Part shown: one piece after another, positions 14,235-29,299 of the stretch
Layout of the letters: each line of letters opens with the position of its first letter
Numbering within the stretch: the stretch's first letter is position 1
Assembly (NCBI GenBank): GCA_030917065.1
Contig: JAUPVL010000018.1
Location: 2,568-66,567, forward strand
Length of the DNA: 64,000 nucleotides
Direction: 5' to 3'
DNA from: Patescibacteria group bacterium
GTDB lineage: Bacteria > Patescibacteriota > Saccharimonadia > CAILAD01 > BJGX01
Position numbers and translations under genes: made by a program
Notes under the pieces: model-generated
What the model saw: the letters and a program-made list of their open reading frames with translations, nothing else
The model's database searches: none
Told to the model about the DNA's origin: nothing

Positions 14235-15137
14235 ATGAACAGACACATACCAGTTTTATTGAGTGAGTTGTTAGAAATATTGAATCCTATAGAAGGTGAA
14301 GATTTTGCGGATTTAACGGCCGGATACGGCGGACATAGCGAAGCTTTGCTGGAAAAAGTAGGAGACAAAGGATCTGGATATTTATTTGACAAGGACTCTG
14401 AGGCTGTAAAATACCTCAGACACAAGTTTGAAACAAATAAAAATATCAATATCTATCAAACTGATTTTGCCGATATAGATTGGGATACAGACATACCTCA
14501 AGTCGACATTATAATAGCCGACATAGGTGTAAGCTCACCTCAGCTAGACGACACCGAAAGGGGGTTTAGCTTCAAGTCAGATGCACGATTGGACATGCGG
14601 ATGAATCAACAGCAAGAACTCGATGCTTATACAGTGATAAACACATATAGTGAGAAAGATCTGGCTGACATATTCTACAGATACGGCGAAGAACATAGCA
14701 GTAGACGGATAGCCAAGGCCATAGCTAATGCCCGTAAAAAAGCTCCTATTCAATCGACCGTCGAGCTCGCAGACTTGATAGCAGGCTCTACTCACAATAA
14801 AACCGGAAAAATTCATCCCGCTACGAAATGCTTTCAAGCCATCAGGATAGAGGTCAACCAAGAGCTAGATGCACTCGAGAAACTACTACAATCAGCTCCA
14901 AAGCATCTAAATGCAGGCGGCAGACTGGCTATCATTAGCTTCCATTCATTGGAAGATCGGATGGTCAAGCAGGCATTCAATAAACTATGCAAACCAGAAA
15001 AAGATGAGTTTGGTCAAAATGTGTCAAAACCAGAATACAAAAGTGTTACCAAAAAGCCCATAAAAGGCTCTGAATATGATAAATCAAATCCACGTGCGAG
15101 AAGTGCAAAACTTCGAGTCGTCGAGAAAATAAATTAA
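14235..15137 (+). CDS. rsmH: 16S rRNA (cytosine1402-N4)-methyltransferase RsmH
   Basis: HIPVLLSELLEIL…DLTAGYGGHSEALL is the RsmH/MraW signature. dcw context. Confidence 0.9.
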   Translation: MNRHIPVLLSELLEILNPIEGEDFADLTAGYGGHSEALLEKVGDKGSGYLFDKDSEAVKYLRHKFETNKNINIYQTDFADIDWDTDIPQVDIIIADIGVSSPQLDDTERGFSFKSDARLDMRMNQQQELDAYTVINTYSEKDLADIFYRYGEEHSSRRIAKAIANARKKAPIQSTVELADLIAGSTHNKTGKIHPATKCFQAIRIEVNQELDALEKLLQSAPKHLNAGGRLAIISFHSLEDRMVKQAFNKLCKPEKDEFGQNVSKPEYKSVTKKPIKGSEYDKSNPRARSAKLRVVEKIN

Positions 15138-15161
15138 ACAAAAACAAAAGGAGGGTTAGAA

Positions 15162-15233
15162 ATGACCTTAGCAATCAAAAACGAAAGTCCACGAGCTAGA
15201 AAGCTAAAAGTTCGCGTAATCAAAGTAAGATAA
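15162..15233 (+). CDS. tiny basic ORF (23 aa) with a strong SD
   Basis: aaaaggaggg lies 6 nt before the ATG. Product MTLAIKNESPRARKLKVRVIKVR. Sits between rsmH and ftsL. Confidence 0.2.
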   Translation: MTLAIKNESPRARKLKVRVIKVR

Positions 15234-15322
15234 TTTAGACAATCTAGTTTCTTAAAGCTTTAGTAAACTACTACAAAAACAAAAACAAAAACAAAAAAAT
15301 AACAAAAACAAAAGGAGAATCA

Positions 15323-15649
15323 ATGTCAACAGCTACCGCAACGCTACGAAGAAATCAAAATATTACCCGAAATAGACTAGAGTTTCAGACTGGTCCAATA
15401 ACTGCCGGAGTAATGCTTCTTGCGCTAGTGATATTGCTATCCTTGTTGTATCTCAATCAAGTAACTAAGACATCTTTGTACAATTACAAGATCTCAAATC
15501 TTCAAAACACCCAATCAAAGTTAGAAACTGAAAAACAGAACCTACAGATTGAAGCTGCTCGGGCACAGTCCATAGCAGAGAGCAAATCAAAGGCTGCTAG
15601 TGCAGGTTTAGTAAAAACCGATACGGTATCATTCGTACAGGGTCGATGA
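15323..15649 (+). CDS. ftsL: cell division protein FtsL-like
   Basis: Single TM helix then a coiled-coil (…LQNTQSKLETEKQNLQIEAARAQ…). Sits at the ftsL slot between rsmH and ftsI. Confidence 0.55.
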   Translation: MSTATATLRRNQNITRNRLEFQTGPITAGVMLLALVILLSLLYLNQVTKTSLYNYKISNLQNTQSKLETEKQNLQIEAARAQSIAESKSKAASAGLVKTDTVSFVQGR

Positions 15650-15731
15650 TTGTGACCCGTTTTCAATATTATCAATTTTATTGCCATAAAAGGTATCAAA
15701 TAAGTTAAAATAGTATTGGGAAAGGACCATA

Positions 15732-17462
15732 ATGCAAGCGCAAACTCAAGATAGCTGGCGACTATATACACTTGGAATATTGTTTATTTTATTCTGGCTA
15801 CTTGTAGTTGGAAGGCTTGTCTATATTCAGGTATTTCAGGCCAAGAATTATGCAGCCAAAGCATCGATACAACAATCTAGAAAATTTGAGATTCCTGCTC
15901 AAAGGGGAATAGTATATATAAAAGATTCTCAAGATTTATACCCCATAGCACTCAACAACAAGGTCTACACGTTAGCAGTAGACCCCAAGTTCGTAAAAGA
16001 CGCTGATAATACAGCCAAAAAACTTAATGAAATATTGAATACCAACCAGGACGATATAAAAAACCAATTAACCAAAGATAGTCGTTATATTGAGATCAAT
16101 AAATCTATCAATACTGACCAAGCAGACAAAATCAAGGCATTTTCGTTACCCGGGGTTATACTGGTAGAAAGAGCTAGTCGATTTTACCCCGAGGGATCAC
16201 TATTCTCTCATGTATTGGGTTACGTCAATGATGACGGTAAGGGGCAGTATGGCTTTGAACAATTTAGCGATGAGGCCATGGGGGGAACAAATGGTCAATA
16301 CAATACTGCCACGGATGCCTTAGGCATACCTATTAGGAGTGCAGACAACACCATCAGTGATCCAGTGGCTGGCAAGAGCTATGTGCTGACGCTAGATAGG
16401 GGATTGCAGGCAGTTGCGCAAGAAGCACTCAAGCAGGCCATAGAGTCCAATCGTGCAGAATCAGGCAGTATTTTGGTGATGGATGTAAAGACTGGTGCGA
16501 TAAAGGCAATGGTGAACTACCCAGACTACGATCCAAACAATTTCCGTCAGGTTAAAGATTACAAGGTATTCTCAAATACTGCAGTTTCAAGCTTGTTTGA
16601 GCCGGGTAGTGGATTCAAGGTCATAACTATGGCGGCCGGACTAGATACCGGTAAGATAGAGCCAAATACTACATTTAACGATACCGGAGAAGTGAAGGTC
16701 GGTGATAAGGTGATTAAAAACGCCGAAAACCACAAATTTGGTATTTCTACCATGACTGACGTGATACAGAAATCTTTAAACACTGGTGTTGTTTTTGTAC
16801 TCCAGTCTCTTGGTGGAACCTCAGGCAAGATAACACCCGAAGGCAAACAGCTGTTTTTCAGTTACATAGAGAAATTTGGTTTTGGTAAAATAACAGGTAT
16901 TGAACAAGCCGGTGAAGTGAGTAGCAAGGTAAAACAACCTAGTACCTATGACGTAGACTATGCCAACATGAGCTTTGGGCAGGGCATTTCGGTCAATTCA
17001 TTGCAACTTCTTACTGCCGTAGGGGCAATTGCAAACAAAGGCGATCTCATGAAGCCATATCTTGTAGAGGGGGAGTTGCAAAGCGATCAGACACTTAAAA
17101 AAACTCAACCTCAAGTAGTGAGAAATGTCATAAGTCCCGAATCAGCAGCCGAATTGACTCAGATTATGACCCAAGTAGTAGAGAAAGGGTCTGGGTATCT
17201 TACCAAGATGAAAGGTTACCAGATAGCCGGTAAGACAGGAACAGCCCAAGTGCCTAGAAGTGACGGCAAGGGGTATGAAGAAAACAAGAATATTGGTAGT
17301 TTTGTAGGATTCGCGCCTGCAGAAGATCCAAAATTTGTGATGTTGGTAAGAGTAGATTACCCTAAAACGGAAGGATTTGCCGAAAAAACAGCAGTTCCAG
17401 CATTTGCTGTAGTAGCGAAGGAGCTGATGCGTTATTATCAAGTTCCGCCAAGTGTAAATTAG
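15732..17462 (+). CDS. ftsI: penicillin-binding protein 2 / FtsI-type transpeptidase
   Basis: N-terminal TM helix and transpeptidase motifs SGFK (SxxK), SLN (SxN), KTGTA (KTG). Confidence 0.85.
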   Translation: MQAQTQDSWRLYTLGILFILFWLLVVGRLVYIQVFQAKNYAAKASIQQSRKFEIPAQRGIVYIKDSQDLYPIALNNKVYTLAVDPKFVKDADNTAKKLNEILNTNQDDIKNQLTKDSRYIEINKSINTDQADKIKAFSLPGVILVERASRFYPEGSLFSHVLGYVNDDGKGQYGFEQFSDEAMGGTNGQYNTATDALGIPIRSADNTISDPVAGKSYVLTLDRGLQAVAQEALKQAIESNRAESGSILVMDVKTGAIKAMVNYPDYDPNNFRQVKDYKVFSNTAVSSLFEPGSGFKVITMAAGLDTGKIEPNTTFNDTGEVKVGDKVIKNAENHKFGISTMTDVIQKSLNTGVVFVLQSLGGTSGKITPEGKQLFFSYIEKFGFGKITGIEQAGEVSSKVKQPSTYDVDYANMSFGQGISVNSLQLLTAVGAIANKGDLMKPYLVEGELQSDQTLKKTQPQVVRNVISPESAAELTQIMTQVVEKGSGYLTKMKGYQIAGKTGTAQVPRSDGKGYEENKNIGSFVGFAPAEDPKFVMLVRVDYPKTEGFAEKTAVPAFAVVAKELMRYYQVPPSVN

Positions 17463-17492
17463 TAATAAATCTGATAAAATAAGCAATATAAT

Positions 17493-18518
17493 ATGTTTGA
17501 ATCAACCTTAAATACCGAATTAACCCACATCCTTTTACAGGGCTTTGTATGCTTTGTACTAGCTATGCTACTCACTCCTTTGTACACATATTTCGCATTC
17601 AAGTTTAAGCTATGGAAACAAATAAGAGACACCTCTACAACAGGTGAAAAAGCACCGGTTTTTCACAAGCTACACGCTGCAAAGCACAAAAGAAACATTC
17701 CTACCATGGCTGGGGTGATAGCTGTGGTAGCTGTAACTATCACCATGTTATTGATGAATTGGACAAGGTCACAAACATACTTACCAGTATTTGGCTTGGT
17801 AGCGGCTGGTGCAGTCGGCTTATTAGACGATTTTATCAATATTCGTGGCAACGGCAAAGGTGTAGCAGGGTTGAGATCGTCCTTGAAGTTCTTCTTGATA
17901 CTGGGTGTTGCACTGATAGGTGCACTGTATTTTTTCTACAAACTTGGATACAGCCAAATACACGTACCTGCAGTAGGTGACTTTGATATTGGGCTACTGT
18001 ATATTCCGCTTTTTGTCTTAGTAGTTATTTCTACGGCCAACGCTGTCAACATAGCCGATGGATTAGATGGTTTATCTGGAGGGCTACTAGCAAGCGCATT
18101 TGGTGCATATAGCGTTATAGCATTTGCCCAGGGCAATTATGGTATAGCGGGATTCTGCTTGGCAGTTGTTGGTGCGGTATTGAGCTATACTTGGTTCAAT
18201 ATCTTTCCAGCAAGATTCTTTATGGGTGATATAGGTTCTTTTGCGCTTGGGACCGCGCTAGGTATTGTCGCCATGCTGACTAATACGGTTTTCGTATTAC
18301 CAATCATAGGAGCGGTTTTTGTAATCGAGGCAGGCTCTAGTGTCATCCAAATATTTTCAAAAAAAGTATTCAAACGCAAAATATTCTTGTCTGCGCCAAT
18401 TCATCATCACCTGGAAGCAATTGGTTGGCCAGAAACAAAAGTGACCATGCGTCTCTGGATAATTGGAGCCGTCTGTGCTGGTTTTGGCACGCTGCTTGGT
18501 CTAATTACCAGGGTTTAA
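17493..18518 (+). CDS. mraY: phospho-N-acetylmuramoyl-pentapeptide transferase MraY
   Basis: NAVNIADGLDGL motif, polytopic membrane protein, dcw context. Confidence 0.9.
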   Translation: MFESTLNTELTHILLQGFVCFVLAMLLTPLYTYFAFKFKLWKQIRDTSTTGEKAPVFHKLHAAKHKRNIPTMAGVIAVVAVTITMLLMNWTRSQTYLPVFGLVAAGAVGLLDDFINIRGNGKGVAGLRSSLKFFLILGVALIGALYFFYKLGYSQIHVPAVGDFDIGLLYIPLFVLVVISTANAVNIADGLDGLSGGLLASAFGAYSVIAFAQGNYGIAGFCLAVVGAVLSYTWFNIFPARFFMGDIGSFALGTALGIVAMLTNTVFVLPIIGAVFVIEAGSSVIQIFSKKVFKRKIFLSAPIHHHLEAIGWPETKVTMRLWIIGAVCAGFGTLLGLITRV

Positions 18519-18521
18519 AAT

Positions 18522-19748
18522 ATGGAAAACAAAAACAAAACCCCCAAGACTCGTTTCGCAATTGCTCACAAACCCGATTATATCTTATCTATATTAGTAC
18601 TATCGTTGATTGTTATTGGGCTGATCATGATTTATTCTACGGGCTGGATTACTGTACTCAAACAAACGGGAGGGAGTAGCGATAGGAATGGATTTTTCTG
18701 GACCCAACTATTAAGTTTTGGGCTGGGGTTGACTGGCTGGTTTATAGCTAGCAAATTTCATTACAGTAATTGGCAAAAATATGCTAGTTTTATATTTTAC
18801 GGATCGCTGGCCTTGATGTTTTTAGTTCTTGTTCCAGGGATAGCCGTGACAGTAAACGGTGCCTCTAGGTGGGTGCATATAGGACCTATTAATTTTCAGC
18901 CCGTAGAGTTCTTTAAGCTTGGCACTATTTTGTTTGTGGCTGCCTGGATAGATAAGAATCGAGCCAAGCTCAATAGGCCAGCCGAAGGTCTTATACCTAT
19001 TATCATTATCTTGATAATAACAATGTCACTAGTGGTGATTTTGCAAAAAGACATGGGGTCTGCATCTGTTTTGGCAGCAGCTATATTTAGTATGTATTTT
19101 ATTTCAGGAGTATCAATGCGCATATTTATGATGGCTCTAGGCTTCATGGTAGCTTCTGCAGTAGGCCTTATCGCCAGCTCTCAATATCGTCTAGCTAGGT
19201 ATATGACTTTTTTAAATCACACAGAAGATCCTACTGGTTCTGGTTATCATATCAACCAAGCACTGATTGCACTTGGATCGGGGGGTATCCTGGGTAGGGG
19301 GTTGGGCAAAAGCTTGCAGGCGTACGGTTATTTACCAGAAGCCACCAACGACTCTATATTTGCTATTATAGGAGAAGAATTTGGTCTAGTGGGGGCTAGT
19401 ATAGTGATAGCAATAATAGTGATGCTGATATGGAGAGGTTACAGAATAGTTAGAGATGCACCGGATAATTATGCAAAGCTAGTAGCATGTGGTCTAGTGG
19501 CATGGATAGGATTTCAAGCCTTTTTCAATATTTCGGCTATGCTTGGTATAATACCTTTAACCGGTATAACTCTTCCATTTATCAGCTATGGAGGCACCAG
19601 TCTAATGGCATCGTTATTCGGTATCGGTATTTTGCAAAACATTTCACGCTATACGAAAGGAGATATACCAGATGAAAATCGTGGTTTGCGGCGGCGGAAC
19701 AGCCGGTCATATAACACCCATACTAGCAATAGTCGACGAGCTACGTAA
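18522..19748 (+). CDS. ftsW: SEDS family peptidoglycan glycosyltransferase FtsW
   Basis: About 10-TM SEDS fold (…RWVHIGPINFQPVEFFK…), placed between mraY and murG. 3' end overlaps murG by 77 nt. Confidence 0.8.
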   Translation: MENKNKTPKTRFAIAHKPDYILSILVLSLIVIGLIMIYSTGWITVLKQTGGSSDRNGFFWTQLLSFGLGLTGWFIASKFHYSNWQKYASFIFYGSLALMFLVLVPGIAVTVNGASRWVHIGPINFQPVEFFKLGTILFVAAWIDKNRAKLNRPAEGLIPIIIILIITMSLVVILQKDMGSASVLAAAIFSMYFISGVSMRIFMMALGFMVASAVGLIASSQYRLARYMTFLNHTEDPTGSGYHINQALIALGSGGILGRGLGKSLQAYGYLPEATNDSIFAIIGEEFGLVGASIVIAIIVMLIWRGYRIVRDAPDNYAKLVACGLVAWIGFQAFFNISAMLGIIPLTGITLPFISYGGTSLMASLFGIGILQNISRYTKGDIPDENRGLRRRNSRSYNTHTSNSRRAT

Positions 19749-20826
19749 CCTAGATAGAAGTGTAGAGATACTATATATTGGTAGCGGTAGTAAGCTCGAA
19801 AAGGAGCTTACTCAAAAATACGATCTCAACTATCAATCTATTTCAAGCGGTAAATTCCGTAGATACAGGCGTGGATGGAAGAAAGAGATTGCAGATATGC
19901 AGACTAACAAAAAGAATATTGCCGATGCAGTTCGTTTTACCAAAGGTTATTTTCAGGCGATGCGAATACTTCGTAAATTTAAACCCGATGTAGTTTTTAC
20001 TAAAGGAGGATATGTATCAGTGCCTGTTGGCCTGGCTGCATCTAGGCTGAAGATGCCATTGCTTATCCATGACTCAGATGCAATATTTGGAATGTCAACA
20101 AAAGTATTGGCGCCCAAGGCTAAGTTGATTGCTACCGGTTTTCCAAAAAATGTCTTTGCTGACTCAACATACAGCGATAAAATCATTTTTACCGGTAACC
20201 CAGTTCGTAAAGAACTATTAAGTGGAAGCCTGGCTCGAGCCCAAAAAATATTTCAATTTAGATCCCAAAAGCCGGTAGTTCTTGTATTTGCTGGTTCACA
20301 AGGAGCAACTGCAATAAATGAAATTGTGTTTGGAGGCCTGGATATTATCCTAAAGGATTACAATCTTATACACCACACCGGTTCAAACGACATAGAGCAG
20401 GCGAGAGTACTCGCTCACAAACTACCTGACAATCTAAGAGAATCTTATAGGCCTTTCGATTTTCTAAAGACCGAGCTTGCCGATGCGTTGTTTTATGCCG
20501 ACATTGTGATCGGAAGAGCTGGAGCCAATTCAATAGCTGAGATTGCTGCACATTCTAAGTCTGCAATATTAATTCCAAGTCCTTACTCGGCCAACAATCA
20601 TCAGCAAAGAAACGCTGAAGTGCTTGAACGGATGGGAGCGGCCAGGATAATCCAACAGGTAGACTTGAGTCCTATCCGGTTGATATCTGAGATAGACAAG
20701 ATACTCGCTGATCCAAAAGCCAAGAAATACTTGCAAAACTCGATACACGAACTTTGGATCTCTGACTCTGCATCAAGAATAGCGCGTCTTATACTCCACA
20801 CCAACAAGGACGGTGTAAATGTCTGA
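19672..20826 (+). CDS. murG: UDP-GlcNAc:undecaprenyl-PP-MurNAc-pentapeptide GlcNAc transferase MurG
   Basis: N-terminal MKIVVCGGGTAGHITP G-loop and GT28 fold. Confidence 0.9.
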   Translation: MKIVVCGGGTAGHITPILAIVDELRNLDRSVEILYIGSGSKLEKELTQKYDLNYQSISSGKFRRYRRGWKKEIADMQTNKKNIADAVRFTKGYFQAMRILRKFKPDVVFTKGGYVSVPVGLAASRLKMPLLIHDSDAIFGMSTKVLAPKAKLIATGFPKNVFADSTYSDKIIFTGNPVRKELLSGSLARAQKIFQFRSQKPVVLVFAGSQGATAINEIVFGGLDIILKDYNLIHHTGSNDIEQARVLAHKLPDNLRESYRPFDFLKTELADALFYADIVIGRAGANSIAEIAAHSKSAILIPSPYSANNHQQRNAEVLERMGAARIIQQVDLSPIRLISEIDKILADPKAKKYLQNSIHELWISDSASRIARLILHTNKDGVNV

Positions 20827-21637
20827 ACAAAGAGTGGTTAAGCTACGTGAAAAGATCAACAGCAACTCGACTGGTACATCTGCTCCAAAAAGTAAAAAGC
20901 CACAATTTAATTTGAAAAAACTTATCCGTCCAATCATTATAGTCGTCTTGGTCTTGATTGTATTGTACGCAGTCTTGGCATCTAGTTTGTTCAAGATAAA
21001 TAAGATAGAAATTGTGGGCAATCAGACTATCGATAGTGAGGATGTCAAATCACAGGTGAGCGCAATCATAACTGGATCAAGTATTAGTCAAAACATTATT
21101 TTCGTACCGTCTTCAGATATCGAGAAACAGTTAAAAAAAGACAATTATCAGGTAGCTGATGTAAAGATATCTAAGATTCCCTTTAGCACAATCAAGGTAA
21201 CAATAACCGAACAAAAACCGAGCATACTATGGAAATCTGGTAACAATCTTTCGATAATAACCGAGAATGGGAGAGGGTTTATAGGAGAGCCTAACGACGA
21301 ACTAAAAAGTAATCTACCAACGGTAGAGGATTTGTCGAATCTACCTGTAAAAGAAGGGGATAAGGTTGTATCACAAGAGTTCGTCAAATTTGTCAATGAT
21401 ATGTACACAACGCTACCACAGAACGGAGTCGAGATAGTTGGTGCTCAGATAGAAGAGACGACAACCGAGATTACAGTAATCACAAAAGATGGCTATAGGA
21501 TTAGGTTCGACACAACTCGGCCTTTTAGTGAGCAATTGTCTGATCTAAATGCAGTACTAGACAGCCTGAAGCAGCAGGGTAAAAAGCCAACTCAATATAT
21601 TGATCTCAGGATCAATGCCAAAGTATTTTATAAGTAG
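20819..21637 (+). CDS. ftsQ: cell division protein FtsQ/DivIB-like (POTRA)
   Basis: N-terminal TM anchor then a POTRA-like region (KINKIEIVGNQTIDSEDV). Position after murG. Confidence 0.55.
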   Translation: MSEQRVVKLREKINSNSTGTSAPKSKKPQFNLKKLIRPIIIVVLVLIVLYAVLASSLFKINKIEIVGNQTIDSEDVKSQVSAIITGSSISQNIIFVPSSDIEKQLKKDNYQVADVKISKIPFSTIKVTITEQKPSILWKSGNNLSIITENGRGFIGEPNDELKSNLPTVEDLSNLPVKEGDKVVSQEFVKFVNDMYTTLPQNGVEIVGAQIEETTTEITVITKDGYRIRFDTTRPFSEQLSDLNAVLDSLKQQGKKPTQYIDLRINAKVFYK

Positions 21638-22110
21638 GGCATATCCATAGAAGGTATAGAGAGGTATTAATTACAACAAAGCACGTGTGTGCTGTGAAAC
21701 ATAGGTTGTGGATAACTATTAGACGAGAAGACATGTGTAAATGCACAGACACAGGCCAATATCGTCTGTTAACTATATAAGTTCGGTTTTTGTTTATACT
21801 ACTTACACTGATATATAGCAGTATTTGCTGAAATCTCATGCTGTTCATTTGCCCATCCATGCTCGAAGCGTGAAAAAAGAGAAGATACGCAACAAATAAA
21901 TATGATTCATATAATGGTGATTTAGATGCTATATATACTTATATACGTAAAATATACATTGTGCGACATACTATATTTATCACTCCAGCTATCTATTTAT
22001 ACCTCTAATATATAGTTATTACGTTTCCTTTCTATGACTTTAGCGTAAACGCGATGTTGTAATGTGAATATCTCTGTAACACATTAGTGCTTTGTTAGCC
22101 TAGTTCGCTA

Positions 22111-24813
22111 CTAAGCTTTGTTATTGCTATTACGATCATTACGATTGTTTTTATTACGATTGCGATTTCGACTGTTGGATCCGCTCGAGTTACTATTTGA
22201 ATTTGAATTCTTTTTTATATATTCACTATATTTCTTTGGCTCGGCTCCACTCACCTTTAGACTAGGGTGGGAGTTGTTGTTATTTACATTGTTTTTGGGT
22301 TGTTCGGTATTTGTGCTACTAGTAGATTGCGTACTCCCCTGCCCCTGTTTGTCATTGCCATCATTGCTCATACCACTCCATTTTTCTATTTGAGTCTCTA
22401 CCTCAGACTTACTAGATGCGTATTTTTCTCGACTTTGTTGAATAATTCTCGGTGTCTGGTCGTTGGGTGGCTGAGGCATTAGTAATGTCTTAGCAGAGAA
22501 TGGTAAGCTAGTTTGTCCATCGATGCTCATCGATACGTAGATGTTCTGCTTATCAAGATTGACCAAATCTAGTGGCTCAAATACAGGCTCAAAGTACTTG
22601 GATAGGTAATTTGCATCGTCTGCACCGACCCTAAAGCTAATCATGCTACCGACATTACCAAAAACAGCGTCGCGAACCTCTTCGGGCATCTGAGCTATGT
22701 ATTGATTGGCAACAGTTAGATATAGTCCATACTTACGTGCTTCAGATAAGATTACAGCAAAACTCTCTGTCGCAAAATTTTGGAACTCATCAACATATAA
22801 GTAGAATGGTATCCTATCTTCAATATTTGGAATATCAGCTCGACTCATAGCATCAAGCTGTATCTTGGTGATTATCAAGCTACCCAGTATAGATGCATTG
22901 TCTTCACCAATTTTTCCTCTTGAGAGGTCTACTATCAGTATCTTGCCTTCATCCATTATTTTACGAATGTTAAATGAGCTCTTTTCTTGTCCGAGTACAT
23001 TTCTAATAAGAGGATTGGCAGTGAATGCCCCTACTTTATTAAGTACCGGTGCCACAGCTTCTGATGCGAATTTTTCATTCCAGCTAGCAAATTCATTAAT
23101 CCAGAAGGCTTTAACAACAGGGTCTTTTACGTTGGCGATAATTTCATTTCGATACTTTTTGTCGGTAAGCATACGAACAATACCAAGCAGTGTAGTGTTG
23201 GGCGTTTCTAGTAAGGCAAGCAAGGTGTAACGTAGAATGTGCTCAAGTCGAGGCCCCCAGCTGTCTCCGAACATCTTCTTTAGCACGCCAACTATTTCAG
23301 ATGCTACGTTGTTTCTGCGATTGACGTCCATCACCTCCATAGGGTTGAATGCTACTGGAAAATCGCCATCTGCTGGGTTGAAGTACACTACGTCGTCGAT
23401 ACGGTGTTCGGGTATAAAACGCATAATATCTTGGGCATAGTCGCCGTGAGGATCAACTACCGCAAATCCCTTATTGTGAAAAACATCCGAAAGAGTCAAG
23501 AGATTTAGTAAGAACGACTTACCAACTCCAGATTTACCGATGATATAAAGATGTCGCATCCTATCTTCACGTTTGATTCCAAACTTGGCATTACCTTGTC
23601 TAAAAGTAGTTGTACCGAACAAGCTCAGGCTCTCCGGAGGAGTGTTGGATGCCATAGGGAGATTGCTAGGCGGCTGACCTACCTTAGTGCTTGTATATGC
23701 AACGCCTGGTGTCTCTACGCTAGTGTGAGGCAAATGATAAAGGCTAGCCATCTCTTCGATATTAAGTACATAGCCAGCGTCTTCAAATTTTCTCTCCCTA
23801 TACTCTTCCAGGGCTTTTTCACCAGTCGCTATACTTGTATTAGTAAAGCCATTGAGATTGATGGTATTGAACTGCTTAAATCCACCTACAAGAGCTTGAA
23901 TTCTTTGTTTTGCTATCATATCGTTGTCACCTACATAGATGGCTCGAATTTTCATAGCAAAACCTAGCTTTTGAGCCTTGGTTTCTATTGCAGTATTGAT
24001 AGTAGTTTGGCCGGGAGATAACTCCGGTTTGGACCCCGGCTTGGCATTTGCTGCCTCTACAGATGGAGGTACTGACAGTGCCCTGGCGGCAAATAGCGGA
24101 GCCTTCAGAGCCTTCTTGCCTAGATTGTCAAATACTCCCTCTTTCTTGCCGTTTACGACTTCGTCGATATATTTGAGGCTTTTGGTGTGCCAACTATCAT
24201 CGACTGGCTCCATCAAAAATTGTATCCACATCTGTTCACCTTCTGACATTGATGCAAGTACTGTAGTTAGTCCAGCAAGCGGATCTACCTCAAAAGTTAG
24301 AAATGTTCGAATCGGAAATATCTCATCTTTGGTAAGAGTTATCTCAGTTTCGTATATTTTTTTGTCAGTGAAGTCTTGTTTTGTATAGTCTTCTTCGACT
24401 GAGTTGATCTGAACTGTAGGATATTGTGCGTATATCTGGCTTTCTACAAAATCTTTGAGTTCGGTTGGAACCCAGACATAGAAGTGTATGATTTGATCGA
24501 TAGAGACAATCTCAAAGCTTATGTGATCTTGTAGCTTGGATTCCTGCTGAAGCTCTCCTGTGGGTCGCAATATACCGTGTAGACTAGCAAACATCTGCTC
24601 TGCTGACAATTCTTTCTTATCATTGTCCTTAGGTACTATTATATGTATCAAGCTATACTCAGAAGATTTGCTACCCGTTATCTCAGCTTTGCGATTGTTC
24701 TTCCATATCAAATACACCAATACTGTAGCTATCAGTGTCCAGCCCCAGAATTGAAATAATATAGTGCCAATAATTGAAAACGCTGTGCTGATTATGTTAA
24801 AGATTGTGTCCAT
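22111..24813 (-). CDS. membrane-anchored FtsK/HerA/VirB4-superfamily P-loop ATPase (900 aa) with an N/S/R-rich C-terminal tail
   Basis: Two N-terminal TM helices. About 400-aa N-domain with no recognisable motif. Walker A YIIGKSGVGKSFLLNLL at about residue 430, then VVDPHGDY, Walker B LYVDEFQNF, and a Q-motif-like ARKYGLYLTVANQY (compare FtsK ARAAGIHLVLATQRP). C-terminal about 100 aa is low complexity (NSNSNSNS…RNRNRNKNN). Confidence 0.55.
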   Translation of the reverse strand: MDTIFNIISTAFSIIGTILFQFWGWTLIATVLVYLIWKNNRKAEITGSKSSEYSLIHIIVPKDNDKKELSAEQMFASLHGILRPTGELQQESKLQDHISFEIVSIDQIIHFYVWVPTELKDFVESQIYAQYPTVQINSVEEDYTKQDFTDKKIYETEITLTKDEIFPIRTFLTFEVDPLAGLTTVLASMSEGEQMWIQFLMEPVDDSWHTKSLKYIDEVVNGKKEGVFDNLGKKALKAPLFAARALSVPPSVEAANAKPGSKPELSPGQTTINTAIETKAQKLGFAMKIRAIYVGDNDMIAKQRIQALVGGFKQFNTINLNGFTNTSIATGEKALEEYRERKFEDAGYVLNIEEMASLYHLPHTSVETPGVAYTSTKVGQPPSNLPMASNTPPESLSLFGTTTFRQGNAKFGIKREDRMRHLYIIGKSGVGKSFLLNLLTLSDVFHNKGFAVVDPHGDYAQDIMRFIPEHRIDDVVYFNPADGDFPVAFNPMEVMDVNRRNNVASEIVGVLKKMFGDSWGPRLEHILRYTLLALLETPNTTLLGIVRMLTDKKYRNEIIANVKDPVVKAFWINEFASWNEKFASEAVAPVLNKVGAFTANPLIRNVLGQEKSSFNIRKIMDEGKILIVDLSRGKIGEDNASILGSLIITKIQLDAMSRADIPNIEDRIPFYLYVDEFQNFATESFAVILSEARKYGLYLTVANQYIAQMPEEVRDAVFGNVGSMISFRVGADDANYLSKYFEPVFEPLDLVNLDKQNIYVSMSIDGQTSLPFSAKTLLMPQPPNDQTPRIIQQSREKYASSKSEVETQIEKWSGMSNDGNDKQGQGSTQSTSSTNTEQPKNNVNNNNSHPSLKVSGAEPKKYSEYIKKNSNSNSNSSGSNSRNRNRNKNNRNDRNSNNKA

Positions 24814-24856: not shown

Positions 24857-25930
24857 CTAGCCCTTGTCTCTTCCACCGCGCCTTTTATTTTTTTTTGAAG
24901 TAAGGCCTTCTTTGATGCTATACATATCGTTTTTATCTTTTATAAACTGAGGCTTTTCCTGCAGGTTCAGTGCGATTGTGGTAGTCTTGACCTGTCTTCT
25001 AGCTAGCACCTTAGTGATAATATCCTCTTTACTCAAAGGAGATTTCTCTTTTAGAATCTCTTCTATGATATCAGCGACTGTACCTGGGTTGTATCCCCAT
25101 TCACCGAGAGCATAAATACCCCTACCTATTAGTACGAAACGACCATCTTTAATTAGTTCGTTGTGTACAGCTTGAGTTGTTACATTTTTAGGATTGGCTT
25201 TGAGTTCTGAGATCTTTGTTGAAATCTCACTAAAATGCATGGGTCTAGCGTTTTTCTTAAGTACTAAGTAAATCTTGTCTCGAATGCTTTTGGGATTTAC
25301 TTCTGGCCATACACTCAATCCCCATATATTGTCTAAATTAGATAGGTTTGTACTGGCAAGAGCCAGTTCTTGCAAAGCTTCTTGATTGTGTTTGGGATCT
25401 AATTTTTTTGAAAATTTATCAAAGCGCGATGGTTTGCCGGTCTCACTCACTACAGTTACTAGCTGTTCATGTAGTTTCTTCACTCCATTTTCATTATAAC
25501 TATCACTCAAGAAAAGTAGATCAGCGTGCCCGTCATTTTTGTCAACAAAGGTAAACTTTGGGTTGATCTTAATCAAAAAACTTAAGTGTGGTTGCATCTT
25601 ACCATTCAGATCTAGTTGACTCATTAGTGATGCAAATCCAATAATGCCACCCTTTTCATTGGTAATTGCTATAAGAATATCATTGAGCTCGTGATCGTGG
25701 TTGAACTGTTGTCTTATCTTTGTAATTGCTGCTTTTTCTATCTGTCTTACTCGCTCTCGAGTAATACCCATGTCTTTACCTATTTCTTCAAGGGTCTGCG
25801 AGTTTCCAGTAGCTATACCATAACGGCGTAGCAAGATATCTCTATCGCGGTCTTTCTTGAGTAGGTTCAAGCTATCGTTTATTAGGTTTTCTAGCAGTTT
25901 CTTATCTACTTTGTTTGATTTTACTTTCAT
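24857..25930 (-). CDS. chimeric DNA/RNAP-binding protein: N-terminal sigma-70 region-4 HTH plus C-terminal HARE-HTH (RNAP delta-like)
   Basis: Residues about 25-75 DRDILLRRYGIATGNSQTLEEIGKDMGITRERVRQIEKAAITKIR match sigma70 region 4. C-terminal …MHFSEISTKI…AVHNELIKDGRFVLIGRGIYALGEWGY resembles the RpoE(delta)/HARE-HTH motif DGRFLALSDQTWGLRSWY. Confidence 0.5.
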   Translation of the reverse strand: MKVKSNKVDKKLLENLINDSLNLLKKDRDRDILLRRYGIATGNSQTLEEIGKDMGITRERVRQIEKAAITKIRQQFNHDHELNDILIAITNEKGGIIGFASLMSQLDLNGKMQPHLSFLIKINPKFTFVDKNDGHADLLFLSDSYNENGVKKLHEQLVTVVSETGKPSRFDKFSKKLDPKHNQEALQELALASTNLSNLDNIWGLSVWPEVNPKSIRDKIYLVLKKNARPMHFSEISTKISELKANPKNVTTQAVHNELIKDGRFVLIGRGIYALGEWGYNPGTVADIIEEILKEKSPLSKEDIITKVLARRQVKTTTIALNLQEKPQFIKDKNDMYSIKEGLTSKKNKRRGGRDKG

Positions 25931-25999: not shown

Positions 26000-26028
26000 A
26001 ATTATATCACTTATAAGCTCGGAGGTCA
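26000..26028 (-). promoter_or_regulatory. consensus sigma-70 promoter (minus strand) for the HTH-protein/ATPase unit
   Basis: Minus-strand reading TTGACC, 17 bp, TATAAT (plus coordinates 26023-28 and 26000-05), about 65 nt upstream of the start at 25930. Confidence 0.45.
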
Positions 26029-26052
26029 ACAATTACAAAGGTATTATAATAG

Positions 26053-28323
26053 CTATTTCTTGGTTTTTTTGGTCTTTTCTTTTAGCATCTTGGTGGCAGC
26101 TTTAACATCAATCTTTTTTGGATCAATATCTTTTGGAATTTTAACATTTGTTTTGCCATCAGTAATGTATGGCCCAAATCGCCCGTTCAACACCTGTATA
26201 TTGACGTCTTCAAAATTTGCTATCACCTTCTCTTTATCTGCTTTTTTCTTCTCATCAATGAGTTCTAATGCCTTTTTAGGAGTAATACTAAAAGGATCCT
26301 CATCTTTGATAGATACAAACTTATCACCGTACTTCACATATGGTCCAAATCTACCGATGTTTGTTGTGACTTCTTCCCCGTCTGCTGTTTTGCCGAGGTC
26401 TCTGGGTAATTTAAACATTTCAAGAGCTTGCTCTAAAGTGACGTTATCAATGGTAGAACCCTCTGGTAAAGGTGCGAATTTTGGCTTTTGCTCGTCTTCA
26501 GCCTGTCCAATTTGTATCATTCCGCCATATCGACCGAGTCGCGCTATGACTGGTTTACCGCTCTTAGGGTCTTTGCCTATTTCTCTAGCTTGACTAGCAT
26601 CTTGTCGACTAATGTCTTCAGAAGCCAAAACGAGCTTGTGAAAAGGCTTATAGAACTCGGATATCATACTGTTCCATTTCATCTTGCCTTCTGCTATCTT
26701 GTCGAATTCTTCCTCGGCCCTTACGGTAAATTTATAATCGACAATATCGGGAAAATACTTTACTAAAAAATCAGTGACTATCTTACCAGTATCTGTTGGG
26801 AATAGTTTATTTTTTTCTACACCGAAGTTTTCTTGCTCTGTCTCTGACGATATTTTGTTGTTAACAAGATTGATAATATCAACATCTCTTGGAGCACCTT
26901 CTCTACTCGCCTTTTCCACATATTCTCTATACTGGATAGTAGATATGGTTGGCGCATATGTACTAGGTCTTCCTATACCTTCAGATTCCAACTTTTTCAC
27001 CAGGCTAGCTTCAGTGTATCTCGCAGGTGGCTTATCAAACACACTTCTGGCAGAGACTCTGGTGTTTTCAATCTTTTGCCCCACATTTAATGGTGGCAGT
27101 ATAGTGTCGTCCGTCATCTTGCCGTACACTTTCAAGAAACCGTCAAAAACAATTATTTCACCTTTGGCTACGAACTTAGCATCATTTTTGTTATTTTGGA
27201 TAATCACTGTAGTCCTCTCGGTCTTGGCTTCGCTCATCTGGGAAGCTAATGCCCGAGCTCTTATGAGTTGATATAGCTTCTGTTCTCTCGAATCACTACT
27301 ACCCTTTTCGCTGGAAAAATCAGTAGGCCTGATGGCTTCGTGAGCTTCTTGGGCGCCTGCAGATTTTGTTTTGAAATGCCTTGTTTTTAAGTACTGCTCG
27401 CCATAGTTCGATAGAATGGTTTTTTCGGCTTGAGCAATAGCCGTGCTTGAGAGGTTGAGAGAATCAGTGCGCATATAGGTGATCTTACCTGCTTCATAGA
27501 GTTTTTGGGCTACAACCATAGTTTGGCGGACTGAAAAACCAAGCTTATTACTAGCTACCTGTTGCAGGGTAGATGTTGTAAATGGTGGCGGTGGTGATTT
27601 CTTACCGTCTTTTTTCTCTAGTGAGCCAACACTATATTCTGCACTTATTAGACTTTCCAAAAATTCTTGAGCATCTTTTTTTGTTGCTAGTTTATCTTTG
27701 AGCTCAGCTATTAGTAGCCCATCTTTTTTAAGATCGAATTCTGCAACTACTTTGTAGCTAGATTTAGCAACAAATGCTTCAATCTCTCTTTCACGCTCCA
27801 CAATGATTCTCACAGCGACAGACTGTACCCTACCTGCACTTAAGCCTCGACGGATTTTCTTCATTAGCACTGGGCTGAGTTCATATCCAACTAGCCTATC
27901 TAATACCCTACGGGCTTGTTGGGCATTTACAAGATTGATATCAACTTTTCTAGGGTTGTTCACAGCATCAAGCAAAGCTTGTTTGGTTATCTCATGAAAT
28001 ACAATTCTTTTGGTTGTGCCGGGGTCTAGCTTGAGCGCCTGACATAGGTGCCAGCTGATAGCCTCTCCTTCACGGTCTTCATCAGTTGCAAGTAGCACAG
28101 TCTTGCCTTTGACGGCTTTTCTAAGTGCTGCAATCGTCTTTTTCGAGTCTACAGGTATCTCATAGGTTGGTTCAAAATTCTTTTCTACATCGATATTTAG
28201 ACCACTTTTGGGTAAATCTCTGATATGACCATAGCTCGAAAGCACTTGGTAATCTGATCCCAGATATTTCTCAATGGTCTTGGCTTTTGCCGGTGATTCT
28301 ACAATAAGTAAGTTTTTTGCCAT
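26053..28323 (-). CDS. topA: DNA topoisomerase I
   Basis: N-terminal Toprim MAKNLLIVESPAKAKTIEKYLG…YGHIRDL, topo IA core, C-terminal repeat region. Confidence 0.9.
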   Translation of the reverse strand: MAKNLLIVESPAKAKTIEKYLGSDYQVLSSYGHIRDLPKSGLNIDVEKNFEPTYEIPVDSKKTIAALRKAVKGKTVLLATDEDREGEAISWHLCQALKLDPGTTKRIVFHEITKQALLDAVNNPRKVDINLVNAQQARRVLDRLVGYELSPVLMKKIRRGLSAGRVQSVAVRIIVEREREIEAFVAKSSYKVVAEFDLKKDGLLIAELKDKLATKKDAQEFLESLISAEYSVGSLEKKDGKKSPPPPFTTSTLQQVASNKLGFSVRQTMVVAQKLYEAGKITYMRTDSLNLSSTAIAQAEKTILSNYGEQYLKTRHFKTKSAGAQEAHEAIRPTDFSSEKGSSDSREQKLYQLIRARALASQMSEAKTERTTVIIQNNKNDAKFVAKGEIIVFDGFLKVYGKMTDDTILPPLNVGQKIENTRVSARSVFDKPPARYTEASLVKKLESEGIGRPSTYAPTISTIQYREYVEKASREGAPRDVDIINLVNNKISSETEQENFGVEKNKLFPTDTGKIVTDFLVKYFPDIVDYKFTVRAEEEFDKIAEGKMKWNSMISEFYKPFHKLVLASEDISRQDASQAREIGKDPKSGKPVIARLGRYGGMIQIGQAEDEQKPKFAPLPEGSTIDNVTLEQALEMFKLPRDLGKTADGEEVTTNIGRFGPYVKYGDKFVSIKDEDPFSITPKKALELIDEKKKADKEKVIANFEDVNIQVLNGRFGPYITDGKTNVKIPKDIDPKKIDVKAATKMLKEKTKKTKK

Positions 28324-28447
28324 ATATTTTCTAAAATGCTAACGTTATTTTTATAATAATGCAAGTTTAGTGCATAAGTTGCAAATAATAACAGTGATGC
28401 TGACGCCTTGTCAAATATTTATTAATCTATTGGAACTGATAGTCTAT

Positions 28448-29299
28448 CTAGTTTACTATCCATTGTCCCGCGCCAAGATTACGAATCTTACCTGTTATCT
28501 CCATCAGGCTCAATATATGCGCAAGCTGGGGTGCATCAAAGTTGCTATTATCTATGATAGTTTGCATGGTGTTGTGTCCTTCTTCAATCAAACCTATTAT
28601 CTGCGCTTCTTCTTGGCTAGCGGGTAAGGTTTTGGCTGTCTTTAAAGCACTGCTTTTCAGATCTAGCTCTGCAAGTACATCTGTAGCGTTTGTGACAAGC
28701 TTGGCCCCTAGTTTGATGAGATTATTTGGTCCTGCTGAACGAGGATTAGTAATATTGCCTGGCACAGCCATGACCATACGGTCATTATTAATTGCAAAAT
28801 TAGCAGTTATAAGACTACCGCTCTTGGCATCAGCCTCGGTAATGATGGTTGCAATACTTAGCCCAGCTATTATGCGATTACGAGCTGGAAAATTGAATCT
28901 TTGTGTACTCTGTCCTACTTCGTACTCACTTATTATCGCTCCGCCAGCACTCAATATAGATTTTGCAAGATTGCGATTTGCAGCTGGGTATATAGTATTT
29001 AGGGGTGTTCCTAGGACTGCCACTACCTTTCCTTTGGCATCTATGGCTGCCTTGTGCGCAATAGCATCTATACCGTATGCCAAGCCACTTACCAAGCATA
29101 TGCCGGCGCTAGCTAGGTCGTACGCTAGCCTATAAGTAATCTGTTCGCCATAACTAGATGGTCTGCGGGTGCCAACAATAGCTATCATCGGTAGATCTGG
29201 TATTTCACCCAAACAGTATAATTTCTTGGGCGGTGATGATATGGATCGCAATAACTCCGGAAAACTATTGCTTTTATATGTAATATCTTGTATATTCAT
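28448..29299 (-). CDS. dprA: DNA processing protein DprA (Smf)
   Basis: Rossmann-like DprA core IAIVGTRRPSSYGEQ…VSGLAYGIDAIAHKAA. Conserved dprA-topA linkage. Confidence 0.85.
   Translation of the reverse strand: MNIQDITYKSNSFPELLRSISSPPKKLYCLGEIPDLPMIAIVGTRRPSSYGEQITYRLAYDLASAGICLVSGLAYGIDAIAHKAAIDAKGKVVAVLGTPLNTIYPAANRNLAKSILSAGGAIISEYEVGQSTQRFNFPARNRIIAGLSIATIITEADAKSGSLITANFAINNDRMVMAVPGNITNPRSAGPNNLIKLGAKLVTNATDVLAELDLKSSALKTAKTLPASQEEAQIIGLIEEGHNTMQTIIDNSNFDAPQLAHILSLMEITGKIRNLGAGQWIVN

Follow-up and report, generated by a model that had tools for sequence, protein, structure and literature searches.

Introduction

Type IV coupling proteins (T4CPs) such as TrwB of plasmid R388, VirD4 and TraD combine an N-terminal membrane anchor with a RecA-type ATPase domain, an all-alpha insertion and a variable C-terminal tail, and their genes are typically linked to relaxase and mating-pair genes. 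The VirB4 ATPases of type IV secretion (TrwK in R388) place an N-domain ahead of the ATPase, through which protomers pair and touch the membrane (PMC12857230). In Patescibacteria, Quinonero-Coronel et al. counted 5,713 VirD4-like homologues in 2,918 genomes, 148 of them near virB4, and the Patescibacterial secretion system derives from a monoderm conjugation class (PMC12102498). Here, we analyse a 64,000-nucleotide stretch of a Patescibacteria group bacterium (contig JAUPVL010000018.1; the window), which encodes a 900-aa membrane-anchored ATPase at 22111–24813 on the minus strand. Profile and model comparisons indicate that this protein joins a coupling-protein-type ATPase to a DUF8128 N-domain with a VirB4-like predicted fold, and we lean towards a role linked to type IV secretion.

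The best-described relative is SEML1_0293 of Candidatus Southlakia epibionticum ML1, a 921-aa protein with PF10412 at aa 402–719, whose gene has a Sigma70_r4/HARE-HTH gene (SEML1_0294) upstream and topA nearby (PMC10633639). By architecture and synteny, its orthology with the window gene is almost certain. Transposon sequencing called SEML1_0293 non-essential at each of its three time points; normalised reads for the gene went from 5817 to 2940 to 1372 (T0 to T2), those of its neighbours staying flat. The published annotation marks the gene with the labels ‘core family’ and ‘Patescibacteria enriched’ and has no domain for residues 1–360 (Wang et al. 2023, PMC10633639). SEML1_0294 is essential and likewise belongs to a core, Patescibacteria-enriched family, and the secretion cluster SEML1_0006–0019 is essential and was described as having no recognisable coupling protein (Wang et al., PMC10633639). 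The same genome encodes a canonical, essential FtsK, a separate true VirB4 (SEML1_0008), a second coupling-protein-like ATPase of similar length and layout that is essential (SEML1_0142), and non-essential comEC and dprA (PMC10633639); its annotation tables hold no ‘ComFA’ entry. The partner gene and the split forms described below are left undiscussed in that publication. Quinonero-Coronel et al. noted that the Southlakia coupling-protein homologue is non-essential and considered exaptation possible (PMC12102498). Published counts come to roughly two ‘T4CP homologues’ per genome, and both may belong to the DUF8128 type.

Results

Evidence for a coupling-protein-type ATPase

The gene is a real, uninterrupted open reading frame (ORF) with an ATG start, as an earlier reading made from the letters of the window without database searches (the sequence-only reading) had it. 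Its product is 100% identical to P0001, a protein of the metagenome-assembled genome Patescibacteria group bacterium QG675_217, and the same sequence is found on seven contigs. More than 6500 homologues were found, the close relatives being Saccharibacteria; the genome behind the window is that of a Saccharibacteria-like member of the Patescibacteria.

All the ATPase motifs lie where the sequence-only reading had placed them. Walker A (GKSGVGKS, aa 426–433; 23515–23538, minus strand) aligns with TrwB GATGTGKS and is followed by DPHGDY at aa 454–459. Walker B (FYLYVDEF, aa 670–677, with VDEF at aa 674–677) and the motif SEARKYGL.LTVANQY (aa 690–705), together at 22699–22794 on the minus strand, align with TrwB LWLFIDEL and GRKAGLRVVAGLQS. 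Across 61 homologues that are 56–94% identical, every one of these motifs is invariant or nearly so, with G426, G429, G431 and K432 of Walker A, as well as D675, E676, R693, K694 and Q704, invariant. The segment ARKYGLYLTVANQY at aa 692–705 had been labelled Q-motif-like, which is a misnomer, as it aligns with the conserved coupling-protein motif that follows Walker B; by analogy with TrwB, its residues would have arginine-finger and sensor roles. Judged from this alignment, the catalytic site is intact.

The ATPase domain (aa 396–780; 22474–23628, minus strand) falls within the FtsK-HerA-VirB4/VirD4 superclass, as proposed, and is VirD4/TrwB-like according to Pfam, hhalign and Foldseek. In Pfam searches, the coupling-protein profiles passed their cut-offs (TrwB_AAD_bind, PF10412, 27.4 bits, cut-off 20.5; TraG-D_C, 23.4 bits), as did DUF87 (32.6 bits); the VirB4-type AAA_10 scored 25.3 bits, under its 27.5 cut-off, and the FtsK_SpoIIIE motor (PF01580) gave no match at an expectation value (E) of 1 or less. 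The best partial NCBIfam matches were TraD-type coupling proteins. A role like that of FtsK is weakened by the absence of FtsK alpha and gamma domains and by the separate essential FtsK of Southlakia.

We then ran the family profile against each of the two ATPases encoded by plasmid R388. With TrwB, hhalign gave a probability of 96.6% (E 5.8e-10) over 268 columns (residues 413–711 vs TrwB 117–393), an alignment that runs from Walker A to the post-Walker-B motif and includes the all-alpha region, whereas with TrwK/VirB4 it aligned 18 columns at the P-loop only, at a probability of 8%. The full-length AlphaFold model (mean predicted local distance difference test, pLDDT, 79) matched TrwB in Foldseek with a template-modelling (TM) score of 0.67 and a root-mean-square deviation (rmsd) of ~4.2 Å over ~416 columns, and further matches were Cag-beta, DotL, HerA and a HerA-type defence complex. 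Against TrwK the full-length model aligned over ~890 columns (E 4e-14), but with an rmsd of 16–18 Å and TM-scores of 0.26–0.29. An all-alpha insertion at aa ~497–607 (22993–23325, minus strand), modelled as helices 497–518, 521–536, 543–561, 565–575 and 580–607, is the equivalent of the TrwB all-alpha domain, as indicated by the model, the TrwB alignment and the TrwB_AAD_bind match. Mean identity within the ATPase domain is 78% among the 61 homologues, ~25% to TrwB and ~18% to TrwK. A neighbour-joining tree of ATPase domains had support values that were unusable after re-rooting, and we relied on pairwise identities and the rough branching order. By profile and by model alike, the ATPase half belongs with the VirD4/TrwB-type coupling proteins and not with VirB4.

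An N-domain with a VirB4-like predicted fold

The protein begins with a membrane anchor (aa 2–47; 24673–24810, minus strand) that has a hydrophobic core at aa 4–37 and is followed by KNNRK. Two transmembrane helices had been claimed here; we find one unbroken hydrophobic stretch of 34 residues (aa 4–37), with Kyte-Doolittle windows above 1.6 nowhere else, and aa 2–47 form a single helix in both AlphaFold models, that of the full-length protein and that of the N-domain alone. The stretch may still form a tight hairpin, and the rest of the protein would be cytoplasmic by the positive-inside rule. In its one hydrophobic helix the protein departs from the usual T4CP, which has two.

Between anchor and ATPase, where TrwB has nothing, lies a domain of ~340 aa (aa ~50–390; 23644–24666, minus strand). 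The family is not an unassigned one: this domain is the already catalogued DUF8128 (PF26449), according to the precomputed Pfam annotation of the 100%-identical protein P0001 and of every listed homologue. When modelled alone (pLDDT 81.5), the domain shows two alpha/beta subdomains joined by a disordered loop (aa 225–259). Its top 13 Foldseek matches in the PDB were all TrwK/VirB4 chains (E 6e-5 to 4e-3, probability 0.91–1.00), the matches below them being unrelated (E >0.03), and no solved structure other than TrwK/VirB4 resembles the DUF8128 model; TM-scores were only 0.31–0.37, the query having included ~110 residues of membrane helix and disordered loop. At the level of sequence, the N-domain profile had no match among PDB sequences, Pfam gave no match to the VirB4 N-domain family PF03135 (CagE_TrbE_VirB) anywhere in the 900 aa, and hhalign of DUF8128 against both the TrwK sequence and a 16-sequence VirB4 (TrwK) N-domain profile returned no N-domain signal, the only match being a spurious P-loop alignment from overhanging sequence. 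We accordingly place the suggested link between DUF8128 and the VirB4 N-domain at the level of predicted fold only. The VirB4-like layout of the sequence-only reading is partly borne out for the N-domain, whose model matches TrwK/VirB4 alone, and fails for the ATPase, which is of the coupling-protein type.

Fused and separate forms of the gene

Searching the N-domain alone against 1.84 billion representative proteins returned 2243 relatives at E ≤ 1e-3, in two architectures: fused proteins of 800–1100 aa, and stand-alone, membrane-anchored DUF8128 proteins of mostly ~415–480 aa. The latter stop at ...PPSNLPVQ, exactly where the linker of the window protein starts, so that the conserved end of DUF8128 (EEMASLYHLPH...PP..LP) with its linker (aa 353–398; 23620–23757, minus strand) marks the split point in other Patescibacteria. 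A stand-alone DUF8128 gene is followed by a separate ATPase gene; at one such locus (L002), the ATPase aligns from window residue 399 onward and is 53% identical to residues 399–643. Going by source names, the split form occurs in Moranbacteria, Pacebacteria, Uhrbacteria and Minisyncoccia, a taxonomic spread drawn from protein names and four loci. In a scan with the Saccharibacteria alignment, at least 599 species-representative genomes contained the fused form, the best 80 loci all being Saccharibacteria. Between Patescibacteria classes the ATPase domain is 55–60% identical, which fits vertical inheritance.

Some loci depart from these two forms. One Patescibacteria contig (L093, 5909–12216) carries two tandem DUF8128-ATPase paralogues of 835 and 1071 aa. 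In L086 (7398–11214), the sigma-like gene is followed by one for 151 aa, a weak DUF8128 gene and yceG, and no ATPase gene adjoins them; the ATPase may have moved or been lost. The split-form ATPases of L083 (2310–3863), L085 (10412–12175) and L087 (10327–11961) end in a treble-clef zinc finger (Pfam zf_Tbcl_2), which takes the place of the basic disordered tail of the fused Saccharibacteria proteins.

Homologues in conjugation clusters

A tblastn search of the ATPase domain against plasmids gave 768 records from Bacillus, Streptomyces, haloarchaea, Sulfolobus and others. Most informative was an 833-aa ‘DUF87’ protein of Bacillus methanolicus plasmid pBM69 (L090, NZ_CP007740), which aligned with the family profile over 639 columns, N-domain included, at 100% probability (E 8.7e-43). 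Its gene stands immediately before those for a Replic_Relax protein, TcpC, TcpE and a VirB4-like ATPase, which is the coupling-protein position of a monoderm conjugation cluster. The protein thus shares with ours a DUF8128-like N-domain fused to the same type of ATPase, but it is plasmid-borne in a conjugation-type cluster, has an ATPase of ~28% identity, lacks a sigma-like partner and is uncharacterised, the papers that mention pBM69 being concerned with genome editing of its host. A DUF8128-type protein is carried by 18 Bacillaceae plasmids, pBM69 and 17 related ones, the gene content of the cluster having been read for pBM69. MOB-suite types these plasmids as ‘non-mobilizable’, and the pBM69 cluster suggests that Bacillaceae plasmids so typed may carry a complete conjugation module.

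The split organisation of Moranbacteria and Minisyncoccia also has a plasmid counterpart. Plasmid pNATPE02 of Natrinema pellirubrum encodes a 395-aa DUF8128 protein (98.9%, E 2e-17) directly upstream of a TraM-recognition-domain ATPase, and the pair adjoins another conjugative-transfer protein; it differs from the Patescibacterial pairs in being archaeal and plasmid-borne, in its ATPase (~27% identical) and in having no sigma-like gene. From these Bacillaceae and haloarchaeal relatives we conclude that DUF8128 and a coupling ATPase have long formed a unit in the conjugation-type systems of archaea and monoderm bacteria. The mating-pair-formation class MPF-FATA, presumed origin of the Patescibacterial system, has the same taxonomic range (PMC12102498). 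Within Patescibacteria, the fused gene of one locus (L084) adjoins a giant VirB6/TrbL-like protein and a type IV secretion pilin. Linkage to relaxase or mating-pair genes is thus present for pBM69, pNATPE02 and L084, and absent in the window and the Saccharibacteria loci, where the gene, in contrast to that of TrwB, is a chromosomal core gene with no relaxase or secretion gene linked to it.

A separate plasmid match, far closer than the others, is a 395-aa ATPase-only relative of 42–43% identity to the window ATPase on a plasmid of the alphaproteobacterium Sulfitobacter mediterraneus (NZ_CP081110; L089, 6980–8167). Lying between a DUF3768 gene and transposases, it looks like a truncated, horizontally acquired copy of the Patescibacteria type.

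Gene order around the ATPase

Directly upstream, 43 nt from the ATPase start, a 357-aa protein (24857–25930, minus strand) carries Sigma70_r4 (aa 27–74) and HARE-HTH (aa 218–278) domains, its residues 11–76 matching region 4 of SigA (E 7.5e-13). A homologue of this sigma-like DNA-binding protein is encoded directly upstream of the ATPase in 59 of the 75 Saccharibacteria loci with enough flank, as well as upstream in every split-form locus examined (L002, L083, L085 from Moranbacteria and L087 from Minisyncoccia) and in another fused lineage (L094), and it is kept in L086. As this order is kept while the surrounding genes change completely, we take the sigma-like gene, DUF8128 and the ATPase to be the constant unit; exceptions are L079 (tilS-ftsH-ATPase-murJ) and L092. 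The two window genes are probably co-transcribed: neither a promoter-like nor a terminator-like site was found in the 43-nt gap, and the best promoter-like match in the region, TTGACC-17-TATAAT (26001–26029, minus strand), which agrees with the consensus at 11 of 12 positions and has a TG upstream, lies, as a consensus match only, in the gap between topA and the sigma-like gene.

Farther upstream on the same strand are topA (26053–28323) and dprA (28448–29299), together spanning 26053–29299 on the minus strand and identified by Pfam. The order dprA-topA-sigma-like-ATPase recurs in Saccharibacteria and not in other Patescibacteria classes. Downstream, a division and cell-wall cluster (mraW, a penicillin-binding protein (PBP), mraY, ftsW, murG and ftsQ by Pfam; 14235–21637, plus strand) converges on the ATPase gene, an arrangement kept in L001 and many other Saccharibacteria loci. 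The context had been taken as unusual; it is instead a conserved housekeeping neighbourhood in Saccharibacteria, and the G+C content of the window is even at ~0.40. The sequence-only reading was correct in noting that no type IV secretion genes are adjacent: none, VirB3, VirB6 and VirB8 types included, was found among the ~50 larger window ORFs scanned against Pfam.

Every independent arrangement seen (L001, L079, L084, L085, L086, L087 and L092) has peptidoglycan or division genes no more than five genes from the module, for example the division and cell-wall (dcw) cluster, PBP1a, murJ, ftsW/rodA, yceG, PBP2 or a LytR_C-like gene, a pattern noticed post hoc and without statistics. The 473-bp gap between the ATPase stop and the convergent ftsQ (21612–22110, minus strand) holds a doubtful 82-aa ORF (21612–21860), inside which is a terminator-like hairpin (21693–21680). 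Rfam gave no match for RNA elements around the ATPase gene at E ≤ 0.1. In one Saccharibacteria locus (L067, 334–1407), a weak match to the defence protein Kiwa KwaB stands upstream of dprA and topA.

The variable C-terminus

Past P780, all homologues share the same order of elements: a helix pair, a variable linker, a short motif and a basic disordered end. In the window protein, the helix pair (aa 787–813; 22375–22455, minus strand; modelled helices 787–798 and 802–813) has the conserved pattern D..T..II..SR..Y....VE..I..W.G. The short motif VSGAEPKKYSE (aa 854–864; 22222–22254, minus strand), set within the disordered tail and identified in the homologue alignment, reads (V/L/I)(S/A)G(A/V)(E/Q)PK.YS(E/D) in closer homologues and EQKPN...LKNP in more distant Saccharibacteria. 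The low-complexity end (aa 865–900, NSNSNS...RNRNRNKNNRNDRN; 22114–22221, minus strand) is marked by its composition and a pLDDT of ~30–36.

A low-complexity tail of ~100 aa encoded by a microsatellite had been described. The first part holds, in that the last ~85 aa are rich in N, S, K and R and predicted to be disordered (pLDDT <50 for aa 817–900), with 12 K+R against 3 D+E in the last 60 aa; the second does not. The proposed (attacgat)n microsatellite at 22125–22175 is not a tandem repeat, as Tandem Repeats Finder reported none there at a score of 30 or more, and ATTACGAT occurs in three scattered copies at the tail end (22129, 22138 and 22153, spacings 9 and 15), which are three of the four in the whole window and reflect repeated Arg-Asn codons (CGT-AAT) instead of a head-to-tail array. 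We reject phase variation through a microsatellite: nothing points to slippage-driven switching, and the identical protein occurs on seven contigs. The length of the tail does vary among homologues, as had been expected, from 96 to 202 aa past P780, and length differences between close relatives fall in the tail. It is basic in all homologues, whereas usual T4CPs have an acidic tail, and its identity averages 23% against 78% in the ATPase domain. The simplest reading is that a property would be conserved, a basic and probably nucleic-acid- or partner-binding tail, with the sequence free to vary.

Discussion

On this evidence, we think it somewhat probable that the window gene encodes a chromosomal, vertically inherited and secretion-linked member of a distinct T4CP subclass (VirD4/TrwB/TraD), and our best reading is that the DUF8128-type coupling ATPase serves, or was exapted from, a Patescibacterial type IV secretion system. 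The ATPase would form a membrane-tethered hexameric ring, in which DUF8128 might act in the manner of VirB4 N-domains, pairing protomers or docking the ring at the platform of the inner membrane (PMC12857230). The all-alpha domain and the basic tail, or the zinc finger in split forms, would hold an adaptor or the substrate, be it nucleic acid or protein, and ATP hydrolysis would pass the substrate to the conjugation-derived type IV secretion system, whose genes lie elsewhere in the genome. By analogy with known coupling proteins, the DUF8128 ATPase would thus recruit substrates to the secretion channel. The sigma-region-4/HARE-HTH protein would most likely be a DNA-binding accessory, comparable to TrwA for TrwB or TraM for TraD, that also has an essential function of its own.

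Several observations weigh against a link to secretion. The likeness of the N-domain to VirB4 comes from Foldseek at low TM-scores (0.31–0.37), with no profile–profile signal. No secretion or relaxase gene was found in the 64-kb window or adjoining the gene in the Saccharibacteria loci examined, and the genes conserved around it are those for a DNA-binding protein and for cell wall or division, not secretion genes. In Southlakia, SEML1_0293 is dispensable while the secretion cluster SEML1_0006–0019 is essential, which means that the essential secretion function does not need the DUF8128 ATPase and that any secretion-linked role would concern a non-essential class of substrate. The essential, coupling-protein-like SEML1_0142 could be the real partner of the secretion system.

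Clearly less probable, in our view, is that the ATPase is an exapted motor independent of secretion, part of a Patescibacteria-specific module with the sigma-like protein that works at the membrane on DNA, whether incoming or the cell's own; it might serve in DNA uptake downstream of ComEC, in septal DNA clearance or in coupling DNA handling to envelope growth. This would suit the constancy of the sigma-like/DUF8128/ATPase unit amid changing surroundings in Saccharibacteria, Moranbacteria, Minisyncoccia and other lineages, the position of dprA and topA upstream in Saccharibacteria, and the peptidoglycan and division genes within five genes in every arrangement. The Southlakia data are also compatible with it, as SEML1_0293 is non-essential like comEC and dprA, with reads that fell from 5817 to 1372 between T0 and T2 next to flat neighbours, no ‘ComFA’ entry is found in the annotation tables, and exaptation was left possible by the authors of PMC12102498. 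However, the link to dprA and topA is confined to Saccharibacteria, the cell-wall pattern is post hoc and without statistics, Southlakia has a canonical, essential FtsK, and the sigma-like protein is essential when the ATPase is not, so that the two are not obligate partners. Furthermore, full-length relatives sit in plasmid conjugation clusters, and the L084 copy adjoins VirB6 and pilin genes.

More tentatively still, DUF8128-type proteins could be a third, so far undescribed branch of the VirB4/VirD4 family, with the VirB4-like N-domain either fused or separate, intermediate between a VirB4-like ancestor and the coupling proteins, and in Patescibacteria domesticated with an essential sigma-like protein into a chromosomal module that would remodel nucleic acid at the membrane, or move it, without the essential secretion machine. 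If true, this branch would be common to Bacillaceae plasmids, haloarchaeal plasmids and the core genome of Patescibacteria.

Little remains of the proposal that the protein is a VirB4-class ATPase, a VirB3-VirB4-like fusion acting as the energising subunit of a secretion machine. Its layout, with a membrane helix, an N-domain of ~350 aa and an ATPase, would agree with this, as would the N-domain model, which matches TrwK/VirB4 only, and the long alignment of the full-length model on TrwK (~890 columns, E 4e-14). That superposition is nevertheless poor (rmsd 16–18 Å, TM 0.26–0.29) compared with the one on TrwB (TM 0.67), the profile meets TrwK at the P-loop only (8%), AAA_10 stays under its cut-off, PF03135 is not matched and DUF8128 gives no N-domain alignment with the VirB4 profile. 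Moreover, a separate true VirB4 exists in Southlakia (SEML1_0008), and pBM69 encodes a VirB4-like ATPase next to its DUF8128 protein. The proposal is therefore largely refuted.

Even less credible is a role in anti-phage defence as a HerA-type or MADS (mad8-like) ATPase, which we reject on context. The PADLOC mad8 profile matches aa 418–763 (E 6.7e-17), HerA profiles match weakly, HerA and a HerA-type defence complex are among the Foldseek matches, and the sigma-like neighbour has a match to MzaA in its N-terminal helix-turn-helix. These profile matches span only the ATPase fold of the additional-strand, catalytic-glutamate (ASCE) class that the window protein shares with the hexameric translocases HerA, FtsK and TcpA and with MADS mad8; no methyltransferase, nuclease, mad or Mza gene is nearby, the gene is core, syntenic and vertically inherited and sits among housekeeping genes, not in a variable island, and G+C content is uniform. 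Compared with HerA itself, the central DUF87 domain is present, but DUF8128 is not a HAS-barrel and there is no NurA-like neighbour. Finally, although its halves are separate genes in other Patescibacteria, the long ORF is not an assembly or annotation fusion of two genes, an artefact excluded by the fused form in at least 599 species-representative genomes and a Bacillus plasmid, the identical protein on seven contigs, the continuous reading frame and the conserved junction sequence.

As the literature already names and counts the family, it is not a new kind of system. Our literature search found no paper on DUF8128, nor on HARE-HTH in Patescibacteria, and the DUF8128 N-domain with its VirB4-like model, the fission and fusion of the gene, the near-constant sigma-like partner and the full-length relatives on Bacillaceae and haloarchaeal plasmids appear to be undescribed. 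Patescibacteria make up a large share of bacterial diversity and depend on their hosts via surface machines; their type IV secretion is essential yet has been described without a recognisable coupling protein. A core, Patescibacteria-enriched family of DUF8128 ATPases is an obvious candidate for the substrate-handling motor, and its VirB4-like N-domain, its split and fused forms and its essential DNA-binding partner lead to specific experiments in one genetically tractable species.

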